Of a DNA stretch of 32,000 nucleotides, positions 12,443 to 22,341 are shown in pieces; position 1 is the stretch's first letter; each line of letters starts with the position of its first letter. The notes under the pieces are model-generated. The model worked only from the letters and a program-made list of their open reading frames with translations. It ran no database searches and was not told the DNA's origin. A program made the translations under genes and the position numbers. This stretch comes from Candidatus Nanosynbacter lyticus (GTDB lineage: Bacteria > Patescibacteriota > Saccharimonadia > Saccharimonadales > Saccharimonadaceae), in contig NZ_CP124549.1 in the NCBI RefSeq assembly GCF_030253515.1, forward strand, positions 630,001 to 662,000, written 5' to 3'.

Positions 12443-14911
12443 CTACTGTTCAAGCGACATCGGTGGCGCGCCCGGGCCTGGGGACACCATACTGCTACCA
12501 TTAGCCGCCTCGCCGACCACCGCTCGTATCTGCTCCGCCGTGATAATCGTCGTTGAGCCCGGCGCGACGGTGCCAGCCAACAATTGTTTAGCGACGGTAT
12601 TCTCGACGGCTCGCTGCACCACGCGGCGCATCGGACGAGCACCGAGGCGCGGGTCGTAGCCAGCATCGACCAGTAATTTTTTACCCGCCTCTTCGACAGT
12701 GACTTGGATTTTTTGTGGCGCCAGCGTTCGATTGATACCAGCCAAAATGAGATCAACGACCTGTAGCAGCTCTTCTTTACCCAAGGGACGAAATAGCACG
12801 ATTTCATCAAAGCGGTTCAAGAATTCCGGACGAAATAGATTGGTATTAATCAGCTCGTTGATAAATGTTTGTTCAAACTGCTCCAGTTGGTAGCCACGCT
12901 CGATGTATTCGCGAATTCTCTCAGCACCAGCATTTGACGTGGCGATGACGATGGCGTCACGAAAACTAATGTCGCGGTTTTTCTCGTCGCGTAAAATTCC
13001 CTCGTCCAGTAACTGCAAAAGCGTCGTGAGCACCTGTGGATGAGCCTTTTCAATTTCATCAAGCAGTACCACCGAGAATGGTCGCTTCTGCACCTGGGCG
13101 GTCAGACTCATCGGATCATTCGCCCCATCAGCGATCAGCCGCGCCACGTCCTCGGCCCGGACAAACTCGTTGAGATCCAGCCGGATGAGGTTGCCCTCGC
13201 CACCAAAGTAGATATCCGCCAGCGCTTTGGACAGCTCAGTTTTACCGACACCAGTTGGGCCAAGGAACAGAAACGTACCAATCGGCCGATCAGGATTGCG
13301 CACACCGGCGCGCGCTCGCCGAATCGCATCAGAGATGACGCTAACGGCACGCGTTTGATTGATCATCCGTTGATGGATCAGGTCTTCGAGGTTCAAAAGC
13401 TTCTCTCGTTCATCGTCAGTCGAGGCGGTCGCGATCTTGATGCCCATGGTTTTTTCGACCGCGTCATCAACCGACTGGGCCGTCACCAGACCGGACGACG
13501 CATAGTGGGCTGCCGCCTCCAGCACCTTGAGCGCCCGACCTGGCATCGCCACGTCTTGGACGTAGCGCTCGCCGACACGGTAGGCTTCGGCGATGGCTTG
13601 ATACATGTAGGTCACTTTATGGCGATGTTCAAGACCAAGCAGCTGATCGCGCATAATCCGCACCGTCTCCTCAGGTGATGACGGCTCGATAACGATGGTA
13701 TTGAGCGCCGTCGCCAGCTGGGCATTGCGCTGAGAAATCTGCAAGTAGCGCTGACTATCCATGGTGAGGATAATCCGCAGCCTGCCCGCCTCCAGAATCG
13801 GCAGTAGCAAATTACTCAGATCAACCGAACCGACACCCTCCTCGAAAAACAGCTGGGCATTATCGAGGCACAGAATCACATTCTTTGATAAAAATGCTTC
13901 GTTGAGAATCTGCGTCACCAGTCCTTCCAGCTCGCCCCGACCGGCTGCCGCCGAGATCAACGACGAGGCGTCCAAGAGGAAAATCTGCCGATAGAGCAGT
14001 GATGACGGCACGGTTTTGTGCCCATCGATGAGCATCTCGGCAAACGCCGCCACGACCGTACTTTTGCCAGCCCCATCGAGCCCGACCAGCACTGCATTCT
14101 GTCGGCCGTTCGAGCCAAAAATTGTCATTAGCTGCTCCAGCGCTGCCTGATGAGCGTCTAGCTGCGCGATCATCGTCCCGCCCGATACCTGCAGGCTGAG
14201 GTTCTGGGCAAACCGGCTCAAGAGCGGCGTATAGCCAAACGACCAATCACGAGCGATACCACCGGTGTGAAGCGGCTTTTGCTTGAACTGCTCGATCAAC
14301 GACTTGAGGCGCTCATACCACATAATGCCACCCAGCACATCACGAAAATCAATTTTTAGATTTGCTAGCAGAGCGTCATGATTCGGAAATTGCTCAACAA
14401 TCGCTGCTGCTAACACCGCACCCGTTACTTTTGGACTATTGGTGTCACGCCAAATTCGCAGTGCTGACTGCCACAAAGCTGCTGTATCATTTGGATTATC
14501 TGAGGCAATATTTGTTAAAAAGTTCGGCGTGAGGCCCAGCCGCACTCCGAGGAATTGCCCGGCCCGCGACTGACCAACCGCCAGCGCGATCTCTTTTGGC
14601 GTCGGTCGCTGACTCAGGCGGCCCAGCACATCCGCTGCCATCACATCATCAATCGTCTCCGCTCGCGGACTCACCGCCATCGTCTTGAGATCGCCCTGCC
14701 ACCACACGCTGAGCATCGCTAGCGGCCCCACCAGACCAATCATCAACCAGCCAATCGGCCCGTGCTTGATCAATAGCCAAACGCCGCCCAGACCCAATGC
14801 AACAGCGACGAGCACCACCAACACATGCCAAACCGTACCAAACCGCGCCGTGAACCGCGCCTTTTGCGCCCGCAGGCTGTGATAGCGAAACTCTGGCCGC
14901 ACCTCGTTCAC
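12443..14911 (-). CDS. membrane-anchored two-ring Clp/Hsp100-family AAA+ ATPase (822 aa)
   Basis: The start is taken as GTG 14911, which overlaps the upstream TGA (GTGA) and lies behind GGGGG. Two N-terminal TM helices: VWHVLVVLVAVALGLGGVWLLI and IGWLMIGLVGPLAMLSVWW. D1 has Walker A GLDGAGKST and Walker B ILCLDNA (DN instead of DE). D2 has GPTGVGKTE, VVLLDEIEKAH and RPEFLNRFDEIVLF. I see no long M-domain and no IGF/L loop. Confidence 0.85.
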   Translation of the reverse strand: MNEVRPEFRYHSLRAQKARFTARFGTVWHVLVVLVAVALGLGGVWLLIKHGPIGWLMIGLVGPLAMLSVWWQGDLKTMAVSPRAETIDDVMAADVLGRLSQRPTPKEIALAVGQSRAGQFLGVRLGLTPNFLTNIASDNPNDTAALWQSALRIWRDTNSPKVTGAVLAAAIVEQFPNHDALLANLKIDFRDVLGGIMWYERLKSLIEQFKQKPLHTGGIARDWSFGYTPLLSRFAQNLSLQVSGGTMIAQLDAHQAALEQLMTIFGSNGRQNAVLVGLDGAGKSTVVAAFAEMLIDGHKTVPSSLLYRQIFLLDASSLISAAAGRGELEGLVTQILNEAFLSKNVILCLDNAQLFFEEGVGSVDLSNLLLPILEAGRLRIILTMDSQRYLQISQRNAQLATALNTIVIEPSSPEETVRIMRDQLLGLEHRHKVTYMYQAIAEAYRVGERYVQDVAMPGRALKVLEAAAHYASSGLVTAQSVDDAVEKTMGIKIATASTDDEREKLLNLEDLIHQRMINQTRAVSVISDAIRRARAGVRNPDRPIGTFLFLGPTGVGKTELSKALADIYFGGEGNLIRLDLNEFVRAEDVARLIADGANDPMSLTAQVQKRPFSVVLLDEIEKAHPQVLTTLLQLLDEGILRDEKNRDISFRDAIVIATSNAGAERIREYIERGYQLEQFEQTFINELINTNLFRPEFLNRFDEIVLFRPLGKEELLQVVDLILAGINRTLAPQKIQVTVEEAGKKLLVDAGYDPRLGARPMRRVVQRAVENTVAKQLLAGTVAPGSTTIITAEQIRAVVGEAANGSSMVSPGPGAPPMSLEQ

Positions 14912-15332: not shown

Positions 15333-16598
15333 ATGTCACGACAGATTCTCAGTACACTCATCGGCAAAACCGTCAAACAAGCCGCTCGCCTACGCGGCGG
15401 CGGCTCGGCACTCCCGGGGCTCGTGATTGAAAAGATCGACCCGGGTTTTATCACTCGCACTCTGGCGCAAATACCGCACGGTGTGGTGGTTATCAGCGGC
15501 ACCAACGGCAAAACCACCACTACTAAGATTGTCGTTGAACTGCTCGAGGCGGCCGGCCTCAAGGTTTTCACCAATCGCACGGGCAGTAATTTCTCGCGCG
15601 GCGTGGCAGCAGCACTGCTCGGCGAGGTCGATATGCGCGGGCGGCTGGATGCCGACATCGCGGTGCTGGAGCTTGACGAGGCCTGGGCAGTCAAGTTTGT
15701 TCAATTAGTACCGCCACGCTACAGCCTGCTGCTCAATGTCATGCGCGATCAGCTGGATCGGTTTGGCGAGATCGACACGGCAGCTGGTTTCTTGGCAAAA
15801 ATCGCCCAGGCAACCACTGATACCGTGGTGCTCAACCGCGACGACCCGCGCATCTATCGCCTGCACCAAAATACGGCAGCGGACGTAGCGTTTTTTGGCA
15901 CAACCGACCAGCTGCTCGAGCTGATGCCGACTGACGATGCGCTCAAGACTGGCCATGCTCAGGCCAACCAGACAGCTCCGGCTGACGTACTGCTCATGGA
16001 CATCGATAAGCAAACGGCGACCTTTCACATTGACAATGCCAAGCACGCGGTGCCGATGCGACTGAATGGCGTGTATAACTTGCTCAATGCAGCGGCGGCG
16101 CTGAGTTTGGTCCGGCAAATTACAGGAGAGAAAGCCGAGCTGACGACGTTACTAGGCGCCCTGTCGGACGTAGCGCCGGCATTCGGTCGAGGCGAGACCA
16201 TCGTGATTGACGGCACACCGATTGAGCTGATTCTCGTGAAAAATCCGAGCGGCTTTCGGCTCAGCCTGCTGTCATTTGCCGACGGGACGGCGGATACGAT
16301 GATTGCCATCAACGACAACTACGCCGACGGACGCGACGTTAGCTGGCTGTGGGACGTGGATGTTTCACGCCTCGAGCAGGTGGCGGTGGTCAGCGGCGTA
16401 CGCGCCCATGACATGGCACTGCGGCTAGGGTATGATGATATTACGCCAGAAATAATCGAGCCAGATTTAGCGGCGGCGTTGGAGAAATTACTAGCCCATC
16501 ATCCACGCAAACCAAAACATATTTACTGTACCTACACGGCGATGATGCGACTGCGCAAATTATTAGCAATCAAAACCGATGTGGAGGCCATCCGATGA
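15333..16598 (+). CDS. murT: Mur ligase-like subunit of lipid II isoglutaminyl synthase (MurT)
   Basis: P-loop ISGTNGKTTT. The C-terminal DUF1727-type motif DNYADGRDVSWLWDVD is present. ATGA overlap with the following amidotransferase gene. Confidence 0.85.
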   Translation: MSRQILSTLIGKTVKQAARLRGGGSALPGLVIEKIDPGFITRTLAQIPHGVVVISGTNGKTTTTKIVVELLEAAGLKVFTNRTGSNFSRGVAAALLGEVDMRGRLDADIAVLELDEAWAVKFVQLVPPRYSLLLNVMRDQLDRFGEIDTAAGFLAKIAQATTDTVVLNRDDPRIYRLHQNTAADVAFFGTTDQLLELMPTDDALKTGHAQANQTAPADVLLMDIDKQTATFHIDNAKHAVPMRLNGVYNLLNAAAALSLVRQITGEKAELTTLLGALSDVAPAFGRGETIVIDGTPIELILVKNPSGFRLSLLSFADGTADTMIAINDNYADGRDVSWLWDVDVSRLEQVAVVSGVRAHDMALRLGYDDITPEIIEPDLAAALEKLLAHHPRKPKHIYCTYTAMMRLRKLLAIKTDVEAIR

Positions 16599-17326: not shown

Positions 17327-17716
17327 CTAGCGGTCGCTAATGGAGACGGTGTTATTAAAATAATCAACCTTAAAACCCTTAGGGTCATCAAGGAGTGCCA
17401 TAACAGCTTCTCCTTCAAAAAAGCTGTAGGGAGGCTTAGTCATTACGCCTATAAGATCTGACCAACACATGCTTCCATCGTTAGTCTGTAATATTTCTCG
17501 AACAGCCACTTGGCGCTCTCTGTGTTTACATACGGTATTTTTTGACCCCCCAACTGCAACCTTGCCTAAAACTTTCTCTGCTGCCTCACGGCCCAGCCGC
17601 TTATCTTGCTCTTCTTCAGAGGTGCCTAATTCAGTGAGTTCAGCGCGTGATTCATCCATCGGGACAAGTCGCTTAAAATTGGGGTTTTTAGAAATCTGCT
17701 CATGACCTCCACTCAT
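17327..17716 (-). CDS. hypothetical 129-aa protein
   Basis: Only the 3' third of ORF 17327..18406 is used. ATG 17716 is preceded by GGAAGGAG, with a TGGTATAAT box further upstream. No domain recognised. Confidence 0.65.
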   Translation of the reverse strand: MSGGHEQISKNPNFKRLVPMDESRAELTELGTSEEEQDKRLGREAAEKVLGKVAVGGSKNTVCKHRERQVAVREILQTNDGSMCWSDLIGVMTKPPYSFFEGEAVMALLDDPKGFKVDYFNNTVSISDR

Positions 17717-17758: not shown

Positions 17759-17818
17759 GAAGCTGGTTAGTAGCGTAAGATTACAGGAACGGGCGTGTAT
17801 TATAACCACAACAGACTG

Positions 17819-17877
17819 AAAACGCCCCCGGAGCGGAGCTCCGAGGGCGCGTGTTCGAACAAGATGAGTGTGGTCGG
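17819..17877. repeat. direct repeat copy A (orphan copy of the tRNA-Pro 3' end plus terminator)
   Basis: 57 of 59 nt are identical to 20510-20568. It contains the hairpin CGCCCCCGG (17823-17831) / CCGAGGGCG (17841-17849). On the minus strand this hairpin has a G-U pair rather than a C-A mismatch and is followed by TTTT. Confidence 0.9.
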
Positions 17878-18508
17878 CTACGTCCCCTGCCCCTTGAATG
17901 AGTCCTCGTTCCTTATCCAGCCGACCCTGCCGGAGCTGCAGCGGTTGGCTGAGGTGATGGGGTCGTTGCCGACGGACGGGCCAGCTGGTATCGCAGCGAT
18001 GATCGAAGTAGCGGAACAGCTGCCAACGAACGCATCGGCTAACGCTGCCCTGATGATCGAGGAGGTGGCTCAGCTGGCGCCCCATGAGGCGGAGCGTGAT
18101 GCTGTGCGCGTACCAAATGATGTTGCTGTGACGTCCACGCCGGTAACAGCTGCTATGGATGAATATCCTTGCTGTGTCATGTCCGGGCGGCGAGACGGCG
18201 CTTCGGATTCCCGTCGGGTGCGGCGTCGGCTTTCGCCTGAGACCATTGCCCAGGTTGTGGAACGCTACCAGACGGGGGCGACGGCGGCGGAGCTTGGTGC
18301 TGAGCATGGTGTGTCGAAGAACGGCATGCTCAAGCTGCTGCGTGAGCAAGGGGTGCAGATTCGTGCCAAATCTCTGCCAATCGCGGTCGTCACTCAGGCC
18401 AAGCATCTGTACGAGCGTGGCATGTCGATGCGTCAGGTGTCGGAGCAGCTGGGCGTCTCACGCACCGCACTCAGGCGGAACTTCCGGGAGATGGGGGTTG
18501 GGGTGTGA
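17864..18508 (+). CDS. GC-rich protein with two tandem C-terminal HTH motifs (resolvase/transposase-N-terminal-like); start uncertain, possibly 5'-truncated
   Basis: ORF 17795..18508. HTH motifs: SPETIAQVVERYQTGATAAELGAEHGVSKNGMLKLLRE and AKHLYERGMSMRQVSEQLGVSRTALRRNFREMG. None of the in-frame ATGs has an SD. The 5' end runs into repeat copy A. Confidence 0.55.
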   Translation: MSVVGYVPCPLNESSFLIQPTLPELQRLAEVMGSLPTDGPAGIAAMIEVAEQLPTNASANAALMIEEVAQLAPHEAERDAVRVPNDVAVTSTPVTAAMDEYPCCVMSGRRDGASDSRRVRRRLSPETIAQVVERYQTGATAAELGAEHGVSKNGMLKLLREQGVQIRAKSLPIAVVTQAKHLYERGMSMRQVSEQLGVSRTALRRNFREMGVGV

Positions 18509-18723
18509 GGTATATTTATCGAAGTGACGTCAAACCTATGGTGGACACATGATGGAAGCTGGTGCCAGCGTAGGTTCTGCTAAACACATGTTGTATGCAG
18601 CAGCAGATTTGTTGCTGGCTGACACCTCAAGGAGGGGGCAGGAAGATAGTTGTGATTATACATGGTCATTCTCAAGTGTGCTTTAGTAAAGGTTTTACCG
18701 GTCGACGTGCTGCTTGTGAATAA

Positions 18724-18744
18724 GCCCCGGACTTAGTCCGGGGC
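18724..18744 (-). terminator. rho-independent terminator hairpin
   Basis: Stem GCCCCGGAC / GTCCGGGGC, loop TTA. On the minus strand it is followed by TTATT and lies directly after stop 18751. Confidence 0.55.
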
Positions 18745-18750
18745 GAGGAA

Positions 18751-18933
18751 TCACTTCCTATCTCTGGTGCTAGTGCCGAAGATGACTACCCAGTTACCCA
18801 CTAGAAAAATCATGGCACTTATGCAGCCGATGGCAAGGCACTCCCCACGACCGAAATCTGACAGGAGGAGTCCGACGTAGACTCCAACCAGGAGTGCGAG
18901 AAGAGAAAAGAAGTAGATTACGCGGAGGAACAT
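18751..18933 (-). CDS. small two-TM membrane protein (60 aa)
   Basis: ORF 18751..19050 trimmed to the only in-frame ATG at 18933 (MFLRVIYFFSLLALLVGVYVGLL...AMIFLVGNWVVIF). The annotated GTG 19050 is part of a TGTATAAT box. Confidence 0.5.
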   Translation of the reverse strand: MFLRVIYFFSLLALLVGVYVGLLLSDFGRGECLAIGCISAMIFLVGNWVVIFGTSTRDRK

Positions 18934-19041
18934 GAGTAGCCCCAATCTCTGGTGTGATACTCGACACTCTTGTGTCGGGCTACTGATGGCCTGATCTGTA
19001 AGCAGCCAGTAGCCCGACGCGAGAAGATGTTCCTGATTGTT

Positions 19042-19049
19042 ATTATACA
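19042..19049 (-). promoter_or_regulatory. extended -10 promoter (TGTATAAT)
   Basis: The minus strand reads TGTATAAT. The transcript would carry a leader of about 100 nt with strong hairpins before ATG 18933. Confidence 0.45.
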
Positions 19050-19085
19050 CTATTTTTGCAAAAAGTCTATACGAAAAGGTGGTAA

Positions 19086-19727
19086 ATGATGGATACTGCG
19101 CGGCATATGAAAATTAGCACAGTGGCCGCTGTGCTAGGCGTAGTTGTAGCCGCTATTGGCATACCCGCAACCTTTGTTGTGCCAGAGATTCGATGCTGGT
19201 CCGGATTGGATAAACCTGATAAATGTCAGGGACCCGTCGCAGTTCCTTCGCCGTTATCCCCCGGCAAAGAAGGGGGCGGAACGCCAACTAGCTCTCCGGC
19301 GACTGTTGAGCCCTCGGCGACAACTTTACAGCCACGCGAAACCGAGACAACTACTTCACTAGGTGGGACAACTGATACTCCTAGCTCGAACCCTCCCGAG
19401 ACTTCGCTGCCCCCGATCGTCGATGAACTAAAAAATCCCCACTACTATACACATGATAAAGAGTATACTGGTAGAGTATGGATCAATATTATTCCAACTT
19501 CAGCAAATGAAGGGAAACAACATACTATCCGTATCATTTGGGGGGCGGTTAAGTATGAAAATACCTTCAGAGTTGGTGACTCTTCGAGTCTTGTGCATGA
19601 GAAAACCAAGCCCGACAGTGTCCGTATGGACGTTTATGTGGAGCCCGCAGCGCGAGTGGAGTTTGGAGTAGGAAGGCCTCCTAGTAAGCATGTCATTGAT
19701 ATAAAGGACGGGTGGACTAAGCGGTAG
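19086..19727 (+). CDS. membrane-anchored or secreted protein with a Pro/Thr/Ser-rich linker and an unknown C-terminal domain (213 aa)
   Basis: AAAGGTGG lies before ATG 19086/19089. N-terminal hydrophobic helix ISTVAAVLGVVVAAIGIPATFVV, then a PT-rich linker and a beta-rich-looking C-terminus. Confidence 0.7.
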   Translation: MMDTARHMKISTVAAVLGVVVAAIGIPATFVVPEIRCWSGLDKPDKCQGPVAVPSPLSPGKEGGGTPTSSPATVEPSATTLQPRETETTTSLGGTTDTPSSNPPETSLPPIVDELKNPHYYTHDKEYTGRVWINIIPTSANEGKQHTIRIIWGAVKYENTFRVGDSSSLVHEKTKPDSVRMDVYVEPAARVEFGVGRPPSKHVIDIKDGWTKR

Positions 19728-19908
19728 ATAAGACTGGACACATACTCTCTTGCTGAGTGCTTTCTCTTCTTGGGTACTCGCTGGAACCGATCTTCGGATT
19801 CAATGCTGAGACTTACCCGCGGTCACCCTCAAACATACCCTGGCTGGGGGGTTTAGCTGGCTGACACACTGCCTATGAACTAGGCCTCACAGAGTCCCTA
19901 AACTCTAC

Positions 19909-20265
19909 CTACTCAAGCCCCAGATGAGCCTCAACCACATGCAGCCGCTTGTCCAGCGCTCGCCATTTCTTGTCCTGGGTGTCCCAGCCAACTGTGTCAG
20001 CGTGCTCGCGAGAGCCTTCCTCGAGGAATAAGCGGGTGCGTAGCGAAGCCAGTTCGGCCTTGAGATCACTTTGGGTGGCCATGACCTTCTTGAAATTATG
20101 ATCAGTCTTCAGTTCAAACAGCTGGAAGACGTCGTCGCTGTTCTTGATGTCTTCGCGGATAGCGGCCTGGCCTTTCTCGAGATCGTTCAGGCGCTTGTCC
20201 ATAGCTTCAAAGCGTTTGTCTATCTGCTCTGTCAATGTATTAATCTTCGCTAATATTTCGTCCAT
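19909..20265 (-). CDS. hypothetical coiled-coil protein (118 aa)
   Basis: Perfect SD AAGGAGGA lies 7 nt before ATG 20265. The N-terminal half has a heptad-like charged sequence. Confidence 0.7.
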   Translation of the reverse strand: MDEILAKINTLTEQIDKRFEAMDKRLNDLEKGQAAIREDIKNSDDVFQLFELKTDHNFKKVMATQSDLKAELASLRTRLFLEEGSREHADTVGWDTQDKKWRALDKRLHVVEAHLGLE

Positions 20266-20508
20266 GTAATATCCTCCTTATATCTATTAAATCATGGCTG
20301 TTACTAGCAAACAAGGGGGTAGTTTCCGGATCCGTTTCACCCACCCCCGCTCCCTCTCTCCGCTCACTTCACCCCTGGTCACTCCGAACACTGGACTTCG
20401 TCCCCTCAGAAATCTGATGACAAAGGGGCGACACGCCCTCTCCTTTAGCAAGAATCCTGTCTTTAAGGATTTCATTAAGACGATTTATCTCACCCCTGCT
20501 ACATCGAC

Positions 20509-20540
20509 AAAAACGCCCCCGGAGCGGAACCCCGAGGGCG
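20509..20540 (-). terminator. rho-independent terminator of tRNA-Pro
   Basis: The minus strand reads CGCCCTCGG-9 nt-CCGGGGGCG followed by TTTTT, 21 nt after the tRNA 3' end. Confidence 0.7.
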
Positions 20541-20568
20541 CGTGTTCGAACAAGATGAGTGTGGTCGG
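20510..20568. repeat. direct repeat copy B (contiguous with tRNA-Pro)
   Basis: It overlaps tRNA-Pro positions CCGACCA (20562-20568) and contains the tRNA terminator. Confidence 0.9.
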
Positions 20569-20638
20569 GGTGAAAGGACTCGAACCTTCGACCTCACGGT
20601 CCCAAACCGCGCGCGCTAGCCAACTGCGCCACACCCCG
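20562..20638 (-). tRNA. tRNA-Pro(TGG)
   Basis: Acceptor CGGGGTG/CACCCCG, anticodon stem CGCGG/CCGTG, loop TTTGGGA, T-loop TTCGAGT, encoded CCA. Confidence 0.92.
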
Positions 20639-20668
20639 AGAAGCTAATCTCGTTACTCACTCCGCTCC

Positions 20669-20677
20669 ATTCTACCA
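20669..20677 (-). promoter_or_regulatory. extended -10 promoter (TGGTAGAAT) for tRNA-Pro
   Basis: The minus strand reads TGGTAGAAT, about 30 nt upstream of the tRNA 5' end. Confidence 0.5.
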
Positions 20678-20747
20678 CACTTTACACATTAAATACAGCA
20701 ATAATTAGTGATTTCAGTTAATATATAGAAGACACTCTCTCATACTT

Positions 20748-21201
20748 ATGCCTGGTACTAAGCACATCACCCATACAATTCACCACCGACAAATGATATA
20801 TCTCTATACCATTGTTTGTGTGTATCTCACGCTGCCCATTCTCATTTGCATCGGTGTTATTCCTTGGAATATGAAGTTCGTGGCACTCGTCTTCGGTGTA
20901 GTAGCAATGTACATAGTGATGCGAATTCTCGGCCATACGCATAGCGACATCGGTATTCCGCGGCATCCTCAGCCGTATACTACAAGAACTACGGCTACAC
21001 CGAGTGCTGGAGCTTGGCGTAGCAGCCGCCCTTTTTGGTTATGTACATATCATCTACGGCGACGTACTCACCGTTGTTATCATGAGCATTGTTGGCCTTG
21101 TCTGGTACCGAGCGTACCAGCGCTCATCAAACCTCATCGGTGTAACGATAAGTCACGTGGTGCTTGGTGTGATGACGATTGCCCTGGGGATTATTGATTA
21201 A
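20748..21201 (+). pseudogene. CPBP (CAAX/Abi-type) intramembrane protease remnant, frame-shifted and internally shortened
   Basis: Frame A gives an N-terminal TM region (MIYLYTIVCVYLTLPILICIGV...). From about 20920, frame B gives FRGILSRIL...LFGYVH...ISHVVLG, which matches CPBP motifs 1-3. The EE preceding FRG is absent and the total length is too short. Confidence 0.45.
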
Positions 21202-21203
21202 CA

Positions 21204-21232
21204 TTGACAAGTTACCCCCCATTTTGTTTAAT
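21204..21232 (+). promoter_or_regulatory. sigma70 promoter (TTGACA-17-TTTAAT)
   Basis: Consensus -35 TTGACA (21204-21209), a 17-nt spacer and TTTAAT (21227-21232), 10 nt before ATG 21243. Confidence 0.55.
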
Positions 21233-21242
21233 GGTAAACAAG

Positions 21243-21866
21243 ATGAGAGGGATGGAACAAGGATCAAGACCAGAAACAAAAGAACCACAGCCAGAGTGCG
21301 AAGCACAGCAGAATCAAGCACTACGACTAGTACGATGGGCGGCACGGACAATGGGTAGCCTGCTTGGGCGCAAGAAGGAAAAGCGTGAGCAAATACCTGA
21401 GCTTTCCCCTGAGGCGGTGAAGCGCGCTCTGCTCGGGAGGGTTAAGCATTCAGCTGATAATGCGACTGGGCAATATTCAGATTCGTCAGAAGAGAATGTT
21501 CAGTACCCGTACATCAACCTTGATGACTCGCTTTATCGTTACCCTTTTCCGGCGGAATTGCTTCCAGGGCTAAAGCAATCGGAAACAACTCGCGAAGAGA
21601 TGGAGGAGCGAAGAGATGCTTGGAGTGATTTGTATTTTCATTTAATCGAGCAGCTTGGAAACATCAAGGCGATGACTTTGGCCTACGAAGAGCGCACCAC
21701 CAAGAAAATATCAAAAAGTGAATATGATTTGCTAGAAGAAAAGTATCAAGATTTACTAAAAGTATGCACCTTCGTTCTCGAAGAGCGAGATCGCCTCGAC
21801 AAGCTCATTCACACAGACCGCTACGTACCTCATGCGCGCTGGAGTGCAGATAGTATTTTTGCTTGA
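21243..21866 (+). CDS. hypothetical 207-aa charged protein
   Basis: ORF 21204..21866 trimmed to ATG 21243, because the annotated start is the -35 box. No domain recognised. The 3' end overlaps the convergent Nudix pseudogene by about 60 nt. Confidence 0.6.
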   Translation: MRGMEQGSRPETKEPQPECEAQQNQALRLVRWAARTMGSLLGRKKEKREQIPELSPEAVKRALLGRVKHSADNATGQYSDSSEENVQYPYINLDDSLYRYPFPAELLPGLKQSETTREEMEERRDAWSDLYFHLIEQLGNIKAMTLAYEERTTKKISKSEYDLLEEKYQDLLKVCTFVLEERDRLDKLIHTDRYVPHARWSADSIFA

Positions 21867-22338
21867 ACAAACCAAGCTCCAAAACCTGACGAATGGCAAC
21901 CTTGTATCCCTCGGGCATGTTGAGCTTATTGACCTCATCCGGAGAGACAAGTGCCAACTCTTTATGTTCATGACTAAAGTGCGGCGTTGCGCCCTCGACC
22001 GCTTTCGCAAAATATGTAACCACAAAAACGTGACGATACGGAAAAATTGTGTACACCCAATTGTGAACATTCATCCCAACTGATATATCAATGTTCAGTT
22101 CTTAATGAACTTCACGTTGTACGCACGCTGTTGGACTTTCCCCGAGATCTAATTTTCCTCCCGGCAGCTCCCATTCGTCACGCTCATTTCGCAAGAGTGG
22201 AATCTGACCGTTAAGAGAGATGACAGCCTTAACAGAAATTGGCAATTGATATTCAAAATAATCAATATCCCGCTTGACCAAATAAGGCTGGGCGAGCGAC
22301 TTAACTTCAATCGTTTCCTTTTGCCAAGCCTTGAACAT
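21805..22338 (-). pseudogene. Nudix hydrolase interrupted by an in-frame TAA inside the Nudix box
   Basis: ORFs 22102..22338 and 21805..22074 are in the same frame. The read-through sequence GGKLDLGESPTACVQREVH*ELNI fits GX5EX7REUXEEXGU, with the stop (22102-22104) replacing the first Glu of the EE pair. Confidence 0.7.
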
Positions 22339-22341
22339 AAA

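Follow-up and report, generated by a model that had tools for sequence, protein, structure and literature searches.

A 2.69-kb segment adjoins the 3' end of a tRNA-Pro(TGG) gene in a 32,000-nucleotide stretch of the chromosome of the Saccharibacterium (TM7) Candidatus Nanosynbacter lyticus (the whole stretch is referred to here as the window). This segment is very probably an internally deleted copy of a ~23-kb integrative element that also resides at the tRNA-Pro(TGG) gene of Arachnia (Propionibacteriaceae), an element resembling the actinomycete integrative and conjugative elements (AICEs) and encoding a large serine recombinase (LSR). According to this reading, the LSR would have inserted the element at the 3' end of tRNA-Pro(TGG) by a crossover inside the sequence TGGTCGG, and ~20 kb, including the transfer and replication genes and the LSR gene itself, would later have been deleted in the lineage of the window. 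The remnant would no longer be self-mobile; it would spread among lineages of oral taxon 488 by homologous recombination and would need an LSR supplied in trans for excision. A decayed LSR-type integrative element at a tRNA gene is of a known kind, and its interest lies in the sharing between an epibiont and the host; our literature search turned up no account of this element, nor of one integrated at a common site in both a Saccharibacterium and the host of that Saccharibacterium.

The segment is collinear with the left arm of the Arachnia element over window positions 17818-20315, at 90-97% nucleotide identity. When compared to the Arachnia locus L099 (L numbers denote the loci analyzed), positions 17818-20181 are 90.4% identical over 2.39 kb and contain the same genes in the same order (HTH, TM60, p213 and coiled-coil; Table 1), with homology running on to position 20315. 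A TM7 locus and an Arachnia locus that carry a different cassette, the SIR2 allele (L002 and L091, respectively), are 96.8% identical over 3.0 kb. At the opposite end of the segment, the last 81 nt (20488-20568) are 96% identical to the spacer that separates the LSR gene from tRNA-Pro in L093-L098. The four cargo genes and the flanking gene at 17327-17716 that were listed in an earlier reading of the sequence alone (the original prediction) were recovered in our listing of open reading frames (ORFs); the view that the cargo genes are orphans is refuted, as they have counterparts of 90-97% nucleotide identity in the Arachnia element. On the host side, the RpiB protein encoded by L091 is identical to A. 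propionica AFN45898.1 and QCT38077.1, and the DprA and RplS proteins of L099 cluster with those of Pseudopropionibacterium and Propionibacteriaceae. Taxon 488 strains have been cultured on A. propionica (PMC6797545, PMC7651992).

The remainder of the element was reached through a metagenome search for the junction that a circular form would have, in which the 59-mer joins the right end of the cargo to its left end. Two contigs matched, and beyond the island sequence both have a GC content of 60-70% and carry actinobacterial housekeeping genes. The search for circular junctions suggested by the original prediction thus yielded no free circle in the metagenomes; instead, attP-like junctions (truncated LSR, 81 nt, HTH gene) are embedded in Arachnia chromosomes, and we read them as a newer copy positioned behind the remnant of an older one, and not as proof of excision. 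The long ORF spanning the junction was then reused as a protein query, which retrieved the LSR family along with many junction ORFs. In the recombinase loci (L093-L098 and L111) the gene order is defence or insertion sequence genes, an MT-A70 methyltransferase, a 709-aa ATPase, Replic_Relax, the LSR, the 81 nt and the actinobacterial tRNA-Pro(TGG), beyond which lie tRNA-Gly, tig, clpP1P2 and clpX. The Replic_Relax protein (9e-38) and the 709-aa ATPase, which is coupling-protein/HerA-like with DUF87, TrwB and TraD-type P-loop matches, are present in the Arachnia copies and in one further contig, L112 (described below), and are absent from the window. The left end of the element, found in L099-L102, L113-L115 and L092, has the same layout of HTH gene, variable slot and coiled-coil gene as the window, followed by further element genes. 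L099 and L111 lie on a single 67.6-kb Arachnia contig, in which two copies of the TGGTCGG core are 23.2 kb apart.

Empty sites and flanking repeats

The genes for MurT and GatD are located to the left of the island. An exact-protein look-up with GatD returned 10 human-oral contigs with the same layout (L001-L010), and a scan of species-representative genomes yielded 80 Saccharibacteria loci, the nearest of which belong to the oral-taxon-488 complex, from which the window itself comes, and include the closed genome CP128407.1; flanks within this complex diverge by 6-8% in every direction. The original prediction interpreted the repeats as the attL/attR footprint of an integration event and the gene at 17716-17327 (p129) as the original downstream neighbour, which predicts an empty site composed of this gene, one repeat and tRNA-Pro. 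Precisely this arrangement is present in L011, L014 and L015, bearing out both the footprint and the identity of the neighbour. In L012 and L013, which include the closed genome, GatD is followed by 93 bp that hold one repeat and then by tRNA-Pro, and in L017, L019 and L020 this interval is occupied by a diverged repeat and a second hairpin. The window clade and L016 have the island together with both repeats, and L018 contains an island whose left end is replaced and which has 520 extra nt near its right end. Homologues of p129 are confined to Saccharibacteria contigs of the taxon-488 type (FBF32_03460 among them), which argues that p129 is a genuine chromosomal neighbour from what appears to be a TM7-only family; it has no significant family match in Pfam, PHROG, PADLOC or NCBIfam.

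The two direct repeats, 59 nt each and identical at 57 positions, bracket 2.63 kb, and mapping of the repeats and the tRNA confirmed that the copy at 20510-20568 is joined to the 3' end of tRNA-Pro as originally described. This copy covers the last 7 nt of the tRNA, CCGACCA, which read TGGTCGG on the plus strand. On the tRNA strand both copies form the same hairpin, with a 13-bp stem, a 3-nt loop and a trailing U-run (-27.8 and -28.7 kcal/mol), and the tRNA-proximal copy was also picked up by a terminator scan. The two mismatches (17838/17840 versus 20529/20531) had been assigned to the terminator loop, which is wrong: they occupy the apical stem, where A-U is exchanged for G.U and C-G for U.G such that pairing is preserved. 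We also considered whether the 59-mer stems from a dispersed family of repetitive extragenic palindromes or terminators, a possibility raised with the original prediction, and rejected it. In the window a 35-nt core of the repeat has exactly two occurrences, as compared to zero expected from shuffled sequences, and across 115 scanned loci a 25-nt core is found solely at att positions, once or twice per locus. The tRNA was the only Rfam match in the island region.

A large serine recombinase and its crossover core

As the original prediction had stated, no recombinase is encoded between the repeats (17819-20568), a result verified by ORF and domain scans. The LSR family of the element comprises proteins of 615-758 aa that contain Resolvase and Recombinase domains and a zinc-ribbon, including P0023 and P0053, which adjoin attR in Arachnia. 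The attR arrangement is identical beside Arachnia tRNA-Pro and, following a full LSR, beside the TM7 tRNA-Pro in L112. Several junctions delimit where recombination would occur. In L103-L106 the attL junctions have unrelated left arms (GC >0.6) and share TGGTCGG alone with attR. An unrelated low-GC LSR element that resides at the same spot in Nanosynbacter left a TGGTCG repeat (L071 versus L056); its LSR is only 23% identical to P0023. Furthermore, TGGTCGGG and most of the T-arm are common to tRNA-Pro of TM7 and of Arachnia. Collectively, these data argue that the 3' end of tRNA-Pro is an LSR target in both phyla, and judging from the junctions in several genomes the crossover would take place within TGGTCGG. 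The Nanosynbacter element spans ~4 kb at the tRNA-Pro core (L071 12288-16278; also L075 and L088), encodes the 553-aa LSR and three uncharacterised proteins, and may be a compact native integrative element of TM7.

The original prediction classed the locus as classical integration at a tRNA 3' flank. The site-specific footprint stands, and the tyrosine integrase that this class implies as the agent does not, as the relatives carry an LSR. An island of the tyrosine-integrase type, or a phage satellite, whose integrase was lost or which depends on a helper, would account for a window without any recombinase and for long repeats that include the tRNA 3' end, which are typical of tyrosine integrases; nevertheless, we consider it very improbable, as the full-length relatives all have an att-proximal LSR and no tyrosine integrase (Phage_integrase family) was found in the window or in any related locus. 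A satellite is further contradicted by the lack of capsid, packaging and primase genes and of PHROG structural matches, and by a check of viral collections in which neither the 59-mer core nor the LSR nor the HTH protein was found among IMG/VR contigs. Of the two forms originally proposed, a decayed element or a satellite mobilised in trans, it is the decayed element that is supported.

No stop codon interrupts the reading frame of the LSR ahead of the core, and its tail is only weakly constrained (dN/dS 0.3-0.7). By analogy with the SSV-type archaeal integrases, a bolder sub-reading is that in the attP form the LSR frame would continue through the core into the HTH gene (P0001, 595 aa), so that integration would split a recombinase-HTH fusion. 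This idea finds no outside support, as HMMER searches never revealed the HTH N-domain fused to recombinases elsewhere; also bearing on it, a variant of the element (L107-L110) has a stop between its LSR fragment and the HTH gene. Separately, the recombinases at a number of Arachnia attR loci (P0021, P0022, P0026, P0028 and P0033-P0035) have the same large internal deletion of approximately residues 80-400, which suggests that decayed, non-autonomous copies are common in the host too.

Cargo genes and the variable cassette slot

The HTH gene at the left end begins inside the repeat, with its start codon 7 nt ahead of the core, and hence its 5' end, and presumably its promoter, would be set by sequence to the left of the core. 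Its GC content is 62%, as compared to ~52% for the window, and it is annotated as the 214-aa protein QJU05268.1 (FBF32_03465) on a taxon 488 contig of 893,660 nt. In an exhaustive HMMER search, the N-domain was found in this element family alone, whereas the tandem-HTH module is widespread. A 54-nt in-frame tandem duplication (18 aa) at window positions 17998-18105 is present in the window and L008 and absent from L001-L005.

Between the HTH and coiled-coil genes lies a slot whose content varies among copies. In TM7 L002 and Arachnia L091 it contains SIR2_2 and a gene encoding a 131-aa protein, in L100 and L102 it contains the Gabija genes GajA and GajB (6e-159 and 1e-86, respectively, in L100) together with an NPCBM gene, and in L103, L105 and L107 it is filled by other uncharacterised cassettes. 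The element is a defence-gene hotspot, in which conserved HTH and coiled-coil genes surround interchangeable Gabija and SIR2 cassettes. Additional defence genes, namely ThsB_TIR with SIR2_2 (Thoeris-like), Abi_C and RhuM, are located further inside the Arachnia element (L093 1-2368, L111 178-2025 and L099 16181-18288), which from its gene content appears to be a multi-defence island.

In the window the slot is occupied by the genes for TM60 and p213. Comparison of the TM7 and Arachnia copies yields dN/dS values of 0.2-0.5 for the HTH gene, 0.06-0.2 for TM60, 0.25-0.38 for p213 and 0.07-0.2 for the coiled-coil gene CC118; all four cargo genes are under purifying selection. Homologues of p213 are all at least 77% identical and all lie inside this element family; its AF2 model, built from a shallow alignment, has a pLDDT of 44 and is usable for the secondary-structure pattern alone. 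The Pfam matches of CC118 are exclusively of the coiled-coil type and all sub-threshold. The proposal that the cargo is an exclusion or host-interaction module fits the position of the cassette, as Gabija and SIR2 genes occupy the slot in other copies, but is not supported by a defence-family match for the TM60 and p213 of the window. Guided by position, we would guess at modest confidence that these two proteins play a defence or exclusion role at the envelope. The divergent intergenic region between their genes (18934-19085) contains a strong hairpin (~18980-19017) and, on the minus strand, a promoter-like site (19069-19042); neither this region nor the structured leader upstream of TM60 matches an Rfam family.

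Table 1. Features of the tRNA-Pro(TGG) locus in window coordinates
Feature	Position	Strand	Description
p129	17327-17716	-	Native TM7 neighbour outside the element; adjoins the single repeat in L011/L014/L015, absent in L012/L013/L017/L019/L020
attL	17819-17877		52 nt of displaced native tRNA-Pro spacer/terminator (chromosomal B arm) plus the 7-nt core; direct repeat with 13-bp hairpin; same sequence is the single copy in empty sites
HTH gene	17864-18508	+	Left-end element gene, 214 aa; element-specific N-domain and C-terminal tandem HTH; HTH_Tnp_1, HTH_7 and HTH_23 matches
Core TGGTCGG at attL	17871-17877		Putative crossover region; sole sequence common to attL junctions with unrelated left arms
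Variable cassette slot	18509-19907		Between HTH gene and coiled-coil gene; homology with L100 stops at 18510 and restarts at 19908
TM60	18751-18933	-	First cassette gene (ORF), 60 aa, two predicted transmembrane helices; 98-100% aa identity to Arachnia copies
p213	19086-19727	+	Second cassette gene; N-terminal membrane anchor, Pro/Thr/Ser-rich linker, ~100-aa all-beta C-domain
CC118	19909-20265	-	Coiled-coil gene, right border of slot; kept (118-139 aa) in every Arachnia/TM7 copy reaching beyond the slot
CC118 upstream region	20266-20315		Last stretch collinear with the Arachnia element; homology to L099/L100/L102 stops at 20315
Filler, 172 nt	20316-20487		Probable mark of the ~20-kb internal deletion; no match among the Arachnia loci compared
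Right (P) arm stub	20488-20509		22 nt equal to the 3' tail of the LSR reading frame in full copies
attR	20510-20568		Element-borne spacer and terminator, now the working tRNA-Pro terminator; core 20562-20568
tRNA-Pro(TGG)	20562-20638	-	Integration target; ARAGORN, Rfam tRNA 63.6 bits

Internal deletion and spread of the remnant

The window copy retains both att sites, the HTH gene, the two-gene cassette and the coiled-coil gene, and we infer that the loss of the rest occurred after insertion. A stepwise removal of the ~20 kb would fit L018, in which 106 of the 520 extra nt inside the filler stretch have a counterpart in the interior of the Arachnia element (L093 2796-2901, 80%). As both att sites are intact, mobilisation of the window copy in trans is possible. 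A full element is probably present in TM7 as well. The 13-kb contig L112 contains MT-A70, the ATPase, Replic_Relax, an intact 644-aa LSR (P0057), the 81 nt and a TM7 tRNA-Pro; identity is 98.6% between its TM7 flank and the window and 93.4% between its element half and the Arachnia copies, and dN/dS of P0057 relative to the LSR of L093 is 0.09.

Within TM7 the island has evidently moved between chromosomes. It is 99.5-100% identical among contigs of the window clade, whereas their flanks are ~93% identical, and the ends of the exchanged tract differ from contig to contig, which argues that the island spreads among TM7 by homologous recombination.

We also weighed whether the cross-phylum sharing could be an artefact of assembly or binning, produced by chimeric metagenome contigs. 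L112 is a single contig, and the long TM7 contigs L006, L007, L009 and L010 (one of them 538 kb) end within or exactly at the island, as expected if assemblers meet near-identical Arachnia sequence or alternative alleles in the same sample. An artefact is nonetheless scarcely credible, since at least 10 independent assemblies, as well as taxon 488 records of genome size (FBF32_03465 and FBF32_03460; 893,660 nt), show the TM7 context, at least 12 independent contigs, the longest reaching 690 kb, show the Arachnia context, and the copies are 3-10% apart, so they are distinct loci and not one sequence placed twice.

Origin of the 59-nt repeat and mode of insertion

LSR att sites normally have only a few bases in common, and the repeats in the window are 59 nt long. 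Their length is explained by the finding that the spacer and terminator on the right arm of the element are 96-98% identical to the chromosomal spacer and terminator of taxon 488. Upon insertion the right arm would provide tRNA-Pro with a replacement spacer and terminator and push the native one to the far end of the element, and the near-identity of the two would then appear as a 59-nt repeat. There are two candidate origins for this identity: a native TM7 sequence that was captured by the element, or an element sequence that was left behind in TM7. A hairpin lies equally far from tRNA-Pro in all TM7 clades, and within large clades its versions are recognisably homologous, an architecture that favours a native TM7 origin for the 59-mer and its capture by the element. 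The variant element (L107-L110) exhibits a comparable feature: it is preceded by an LSR fragment and, next to the core, by 174 nt with 80% identity to the flank of tRNA-Pro in another TM7 clade (L022, L023, L026 and L027), and thus the pattern of a TM7-type arm recurs. The 174 nt common to the L022-type genomes and the variant arm looks like a remnant. Remnants of older copies can also yield long repeats, as a truncated LSR and the 81 nt precede a complete left end in the Arachnia loci L091, L092 and L099, and just the 59-mer does so in L113. The HTH protein of the variant element is 65% identical, its contigs encode a protein whose family occurs in Propionibacterium sp. oral taxon 192, and it may represent a second host-epibiont pairing.

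The same 59-nt identity raises a real, if unlikely, alternative to LSR-mediated insertion. Arachnia-element DNA, acquired through the natural competence of the epibiont or by way of the transfer machinery of the element, could have been inserted by a Campbell-type or homology-facilitated RecA reaction through the shared 59-81 nt, which requires no LSR and would give an identical structure. The length of the repeat equals the exact homology between the element arm and the TM7 flank, naive sites, at which the LSR is the sole option, give a 7-nt repeat, and homologous exchange of the island among TM7 is demonstrable (99-100% identity versus ~93% for the flanks). Other observations also weigh against the reading of the island as the product of an LSR element. 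The chromosomal left arm of the TM7 target is the same as the right arm of the element, and a target with a left half equal to the attP half of the enzyme would not be expected to serve a canonical LSR, as such a site is attR-like and a non-substrate. The islands of the same-complex contigs L001-L010 contain no recombinase, and no recombination directionality factor was recognised. A chimeric join is conceivable in L112, a lone metagenomic contig whose halves share ~150 nt (the 81 nt and a similar tRNA). Finally, TM60, p213 and CC118 have no significant family match in Pfam, PHROGs, PADLOC or NCBIfam, leaving position as the guide to their function. Three points argue in the opposite direction: RecA would recombine inefficiently over as little as 59 nt, the repeat ends on its right exactly where the LSR core of all other genomes lies, and a full LSR copy is located beside a TM7 tRNA-Pro in L112. 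We infer that the LSR, rather than RecA, made the insertion in the window.

Exchange between epibiont and host

In trees built from the HTH 3' half, CC118 and TM60-p213, the copies from TM7 are interleaved with those from Arachnia. For example, TM7 L018 pairs with A. propionica L091 (96.5%) and TM7 L002 with L099 (96.1%). Similarly, CC118 of the window is 92.9% identical to Arachnia L100, as compared to 86.2% and 90.0% to TM7 L016 and L018, respectively, and its TM60-p213 region is 93.5% identical to Arachnia L099, as compared to 90.8% and 90.5% to the same two TM7 loci. This interleaving, together with the SIR2 allele common to L002 and L091, requires several exchanges, and in combination with the 90-97% identity it argues that transfer between host and epibiont would have been both recent and repeated. 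The direction of each transfer is a matter of interpretation.

The transfer could also have proceeded in the reverse direction, with ancestral TM7 genes being lost from relatives by repeat-mediated deletion and captured by the Arachnia element. The GC content of TM60, p213 and CC118 (~50%) is near that of the TM7 genome (52%) and far from that of Arachnia (64-68%), and the element arm bears a tRNA-Pro spacer and terminator of TM7 type, in two variants that match two TM7 clades and with an architecture native to all TM7 clades. However, other slot cassettes are equally low in GC, such that composition says little, while the HTH gene (62% GC) and the core genes (Replic_Relax and the coupling-protein-like ATPase) are actinobacterial in composition and kind. 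Moreover, most sister TM7 species are devoid of the island and have clean empty sites, and because the TM7 flank tree is star-like it does not distinguish one old gain from several. We consider this reversed history improbable, and an Arachnia-type element that entered TM7 and was later truncated is preferred.

A more far-reaching scenario, which we put forward tentatively and think somewhat doubtful, is a live shuttle. In it, the AICE-like element of Arachnia would cross repeatedly between the two phyla, in both directions, with the conserved 3' end of tRNA-Pro serving both as attB, and would carry defence cassettes along; the two TM7-clade terminators would be scars of its passage, and the mini-island in the window would be a non-autonomous derivative still open to excision and movement by the LSR of a full copy.

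Relationship to known systems

The element resembles AICEs such as pSAM2 and SLP1 in residing in a high-GC actinobacterial chromosome at a tRNA 3' end, in encoding Replic_Relax, and in having a single large P-loop, translocase-like ATPase with no full type IV secretion system. Classical AICEs use tyrosine integrases, whereas this family has an LSR, a defence-cassette slot and copies in Patescibacteria epibionts; it is known here from its genes, and its transfer is putative. Its recombinase shares the Resolvase, Recombinase and zinc-ribbon organization with the LSRs of SCCmec (Ccr), phiC31, Bxb1, phiRv1 and XisF, and the location of the gene next to att and the 7-nt core at naive sites are similar too. 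Its NCBIfam similarity to CcrC, CcrB and XisF is weak, and because every score falls well short of the family cut-off, orthology to Ccr or XisF is rejected. Unlike these systems, it targets a tRNA 3' end, its LSR frame has no stop before the core, and its flanking repeats range from 59 to ~440 nt in TM7 and several Arachnia loci because remnants or homologous arms precede the element.

The window copy also resembles integrase-less tRNA islets and the defence hotspots of mobile elements (P2/P4 and integrative and conjugative elements), as it is non-autonomous and its HTH and coiled-coil genes bracket a swappable slot; it differs in that slot alleles are common to two phyla and in that the window cassette matches no known defence family. 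Aberrant excision of the lambda gal/bio type offers, purely by analogy and with no intermediate observed, a route by which an element might pick up the chromosomal arm of attL, and hence by which Arachnia copies might have come to carry a TM7 tRNA-Pro terminator, although reuse of the resulting hybrid site by an LSR would be unexpected.

Earlier work has documented that Patescibacteria acquire genes horizontally and that phages of the host come into contact with TM7 (PMC13578794, PMC10746230 for phage contacts). The Xhp1 prophage of Schaalia binds TM7x (PMC13578794), and 'phages' have been described that are co-targeted by CRISPR spacers of Saccharibacteria and Actinomyces (PMC10746230). In these cases, as here, mobile DNA of an actinobacterial host meets the epibiont; they involve binding, limited infection or spacer matches, whereas the element described here is not a phage and is integrated in both chromosomes at an orthologous tRNA gene.

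Saccharibacteria are obligate epibionts with reduced genomes, and their acquisition of genes and exchange of DNA with their hosts have mostly been inferred from distant phylogenetic signals. The tRNA-Pro locus provides a concrete, recent and structurally resolved case of DNA sharing between host and epibiont, in which allelic cassettes (Gabija, SIR2 and an uncharacterised pair) are common to both phyla. What surprises is how nearly identical the segment is to an element of the host genus, that the two have a defence-cassette slot in common, and that the Arachnia copies bear a terminator of TM7 type. Saccharibacteria are genetically manipulable (PMC13622651), and co-culture combined with such genetics makes transfer, excision and cassette function directly testable. 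The LSR and its cross-phylum att site could become an integration tool for Patescibacteria, and shared variants of the element could mark pairings of uncultured epibionts with their hosts.

Other variation around tRNA-Pro

The opposite side of tRNA-Pro is variable too. In the window, a CAAX/Rce1-like protease (20748-21201) and a NUDIX hydrolase (21805-22338) located 5' of the tRNA are each split into two frames and are probably pseudogenes, as intact counterparts are present in L004 (208 aa, 12915-13541) and L001 (162 aa, 15346-15834), respectively. The interval between tRNA-Pro and His_Phos (20639-22341 in the window) ranges from ~90 nt to ~4.4 kb among Saccharibacteria species (L011-L090), and both sides of tRNA-Pro thus appear to be hotspots of gene flux. 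In L044 (12263-19940) and L052 (8747-16533) the same interval encodes giant proteins of 1557 and 1737 aa, repeated membrane proteins of 232-259 aa and an AlkZ-like glycosylase. In the genomes with two hairpins between GatD and tRNA-Pro (L017 9530-9645; also L019 and L020), the distal hairpin represents the 59-mer terminator in diverged form, the proximal hairpin is unrelated to it, and this interval looks like the scar of another element that formerly occupied the core.

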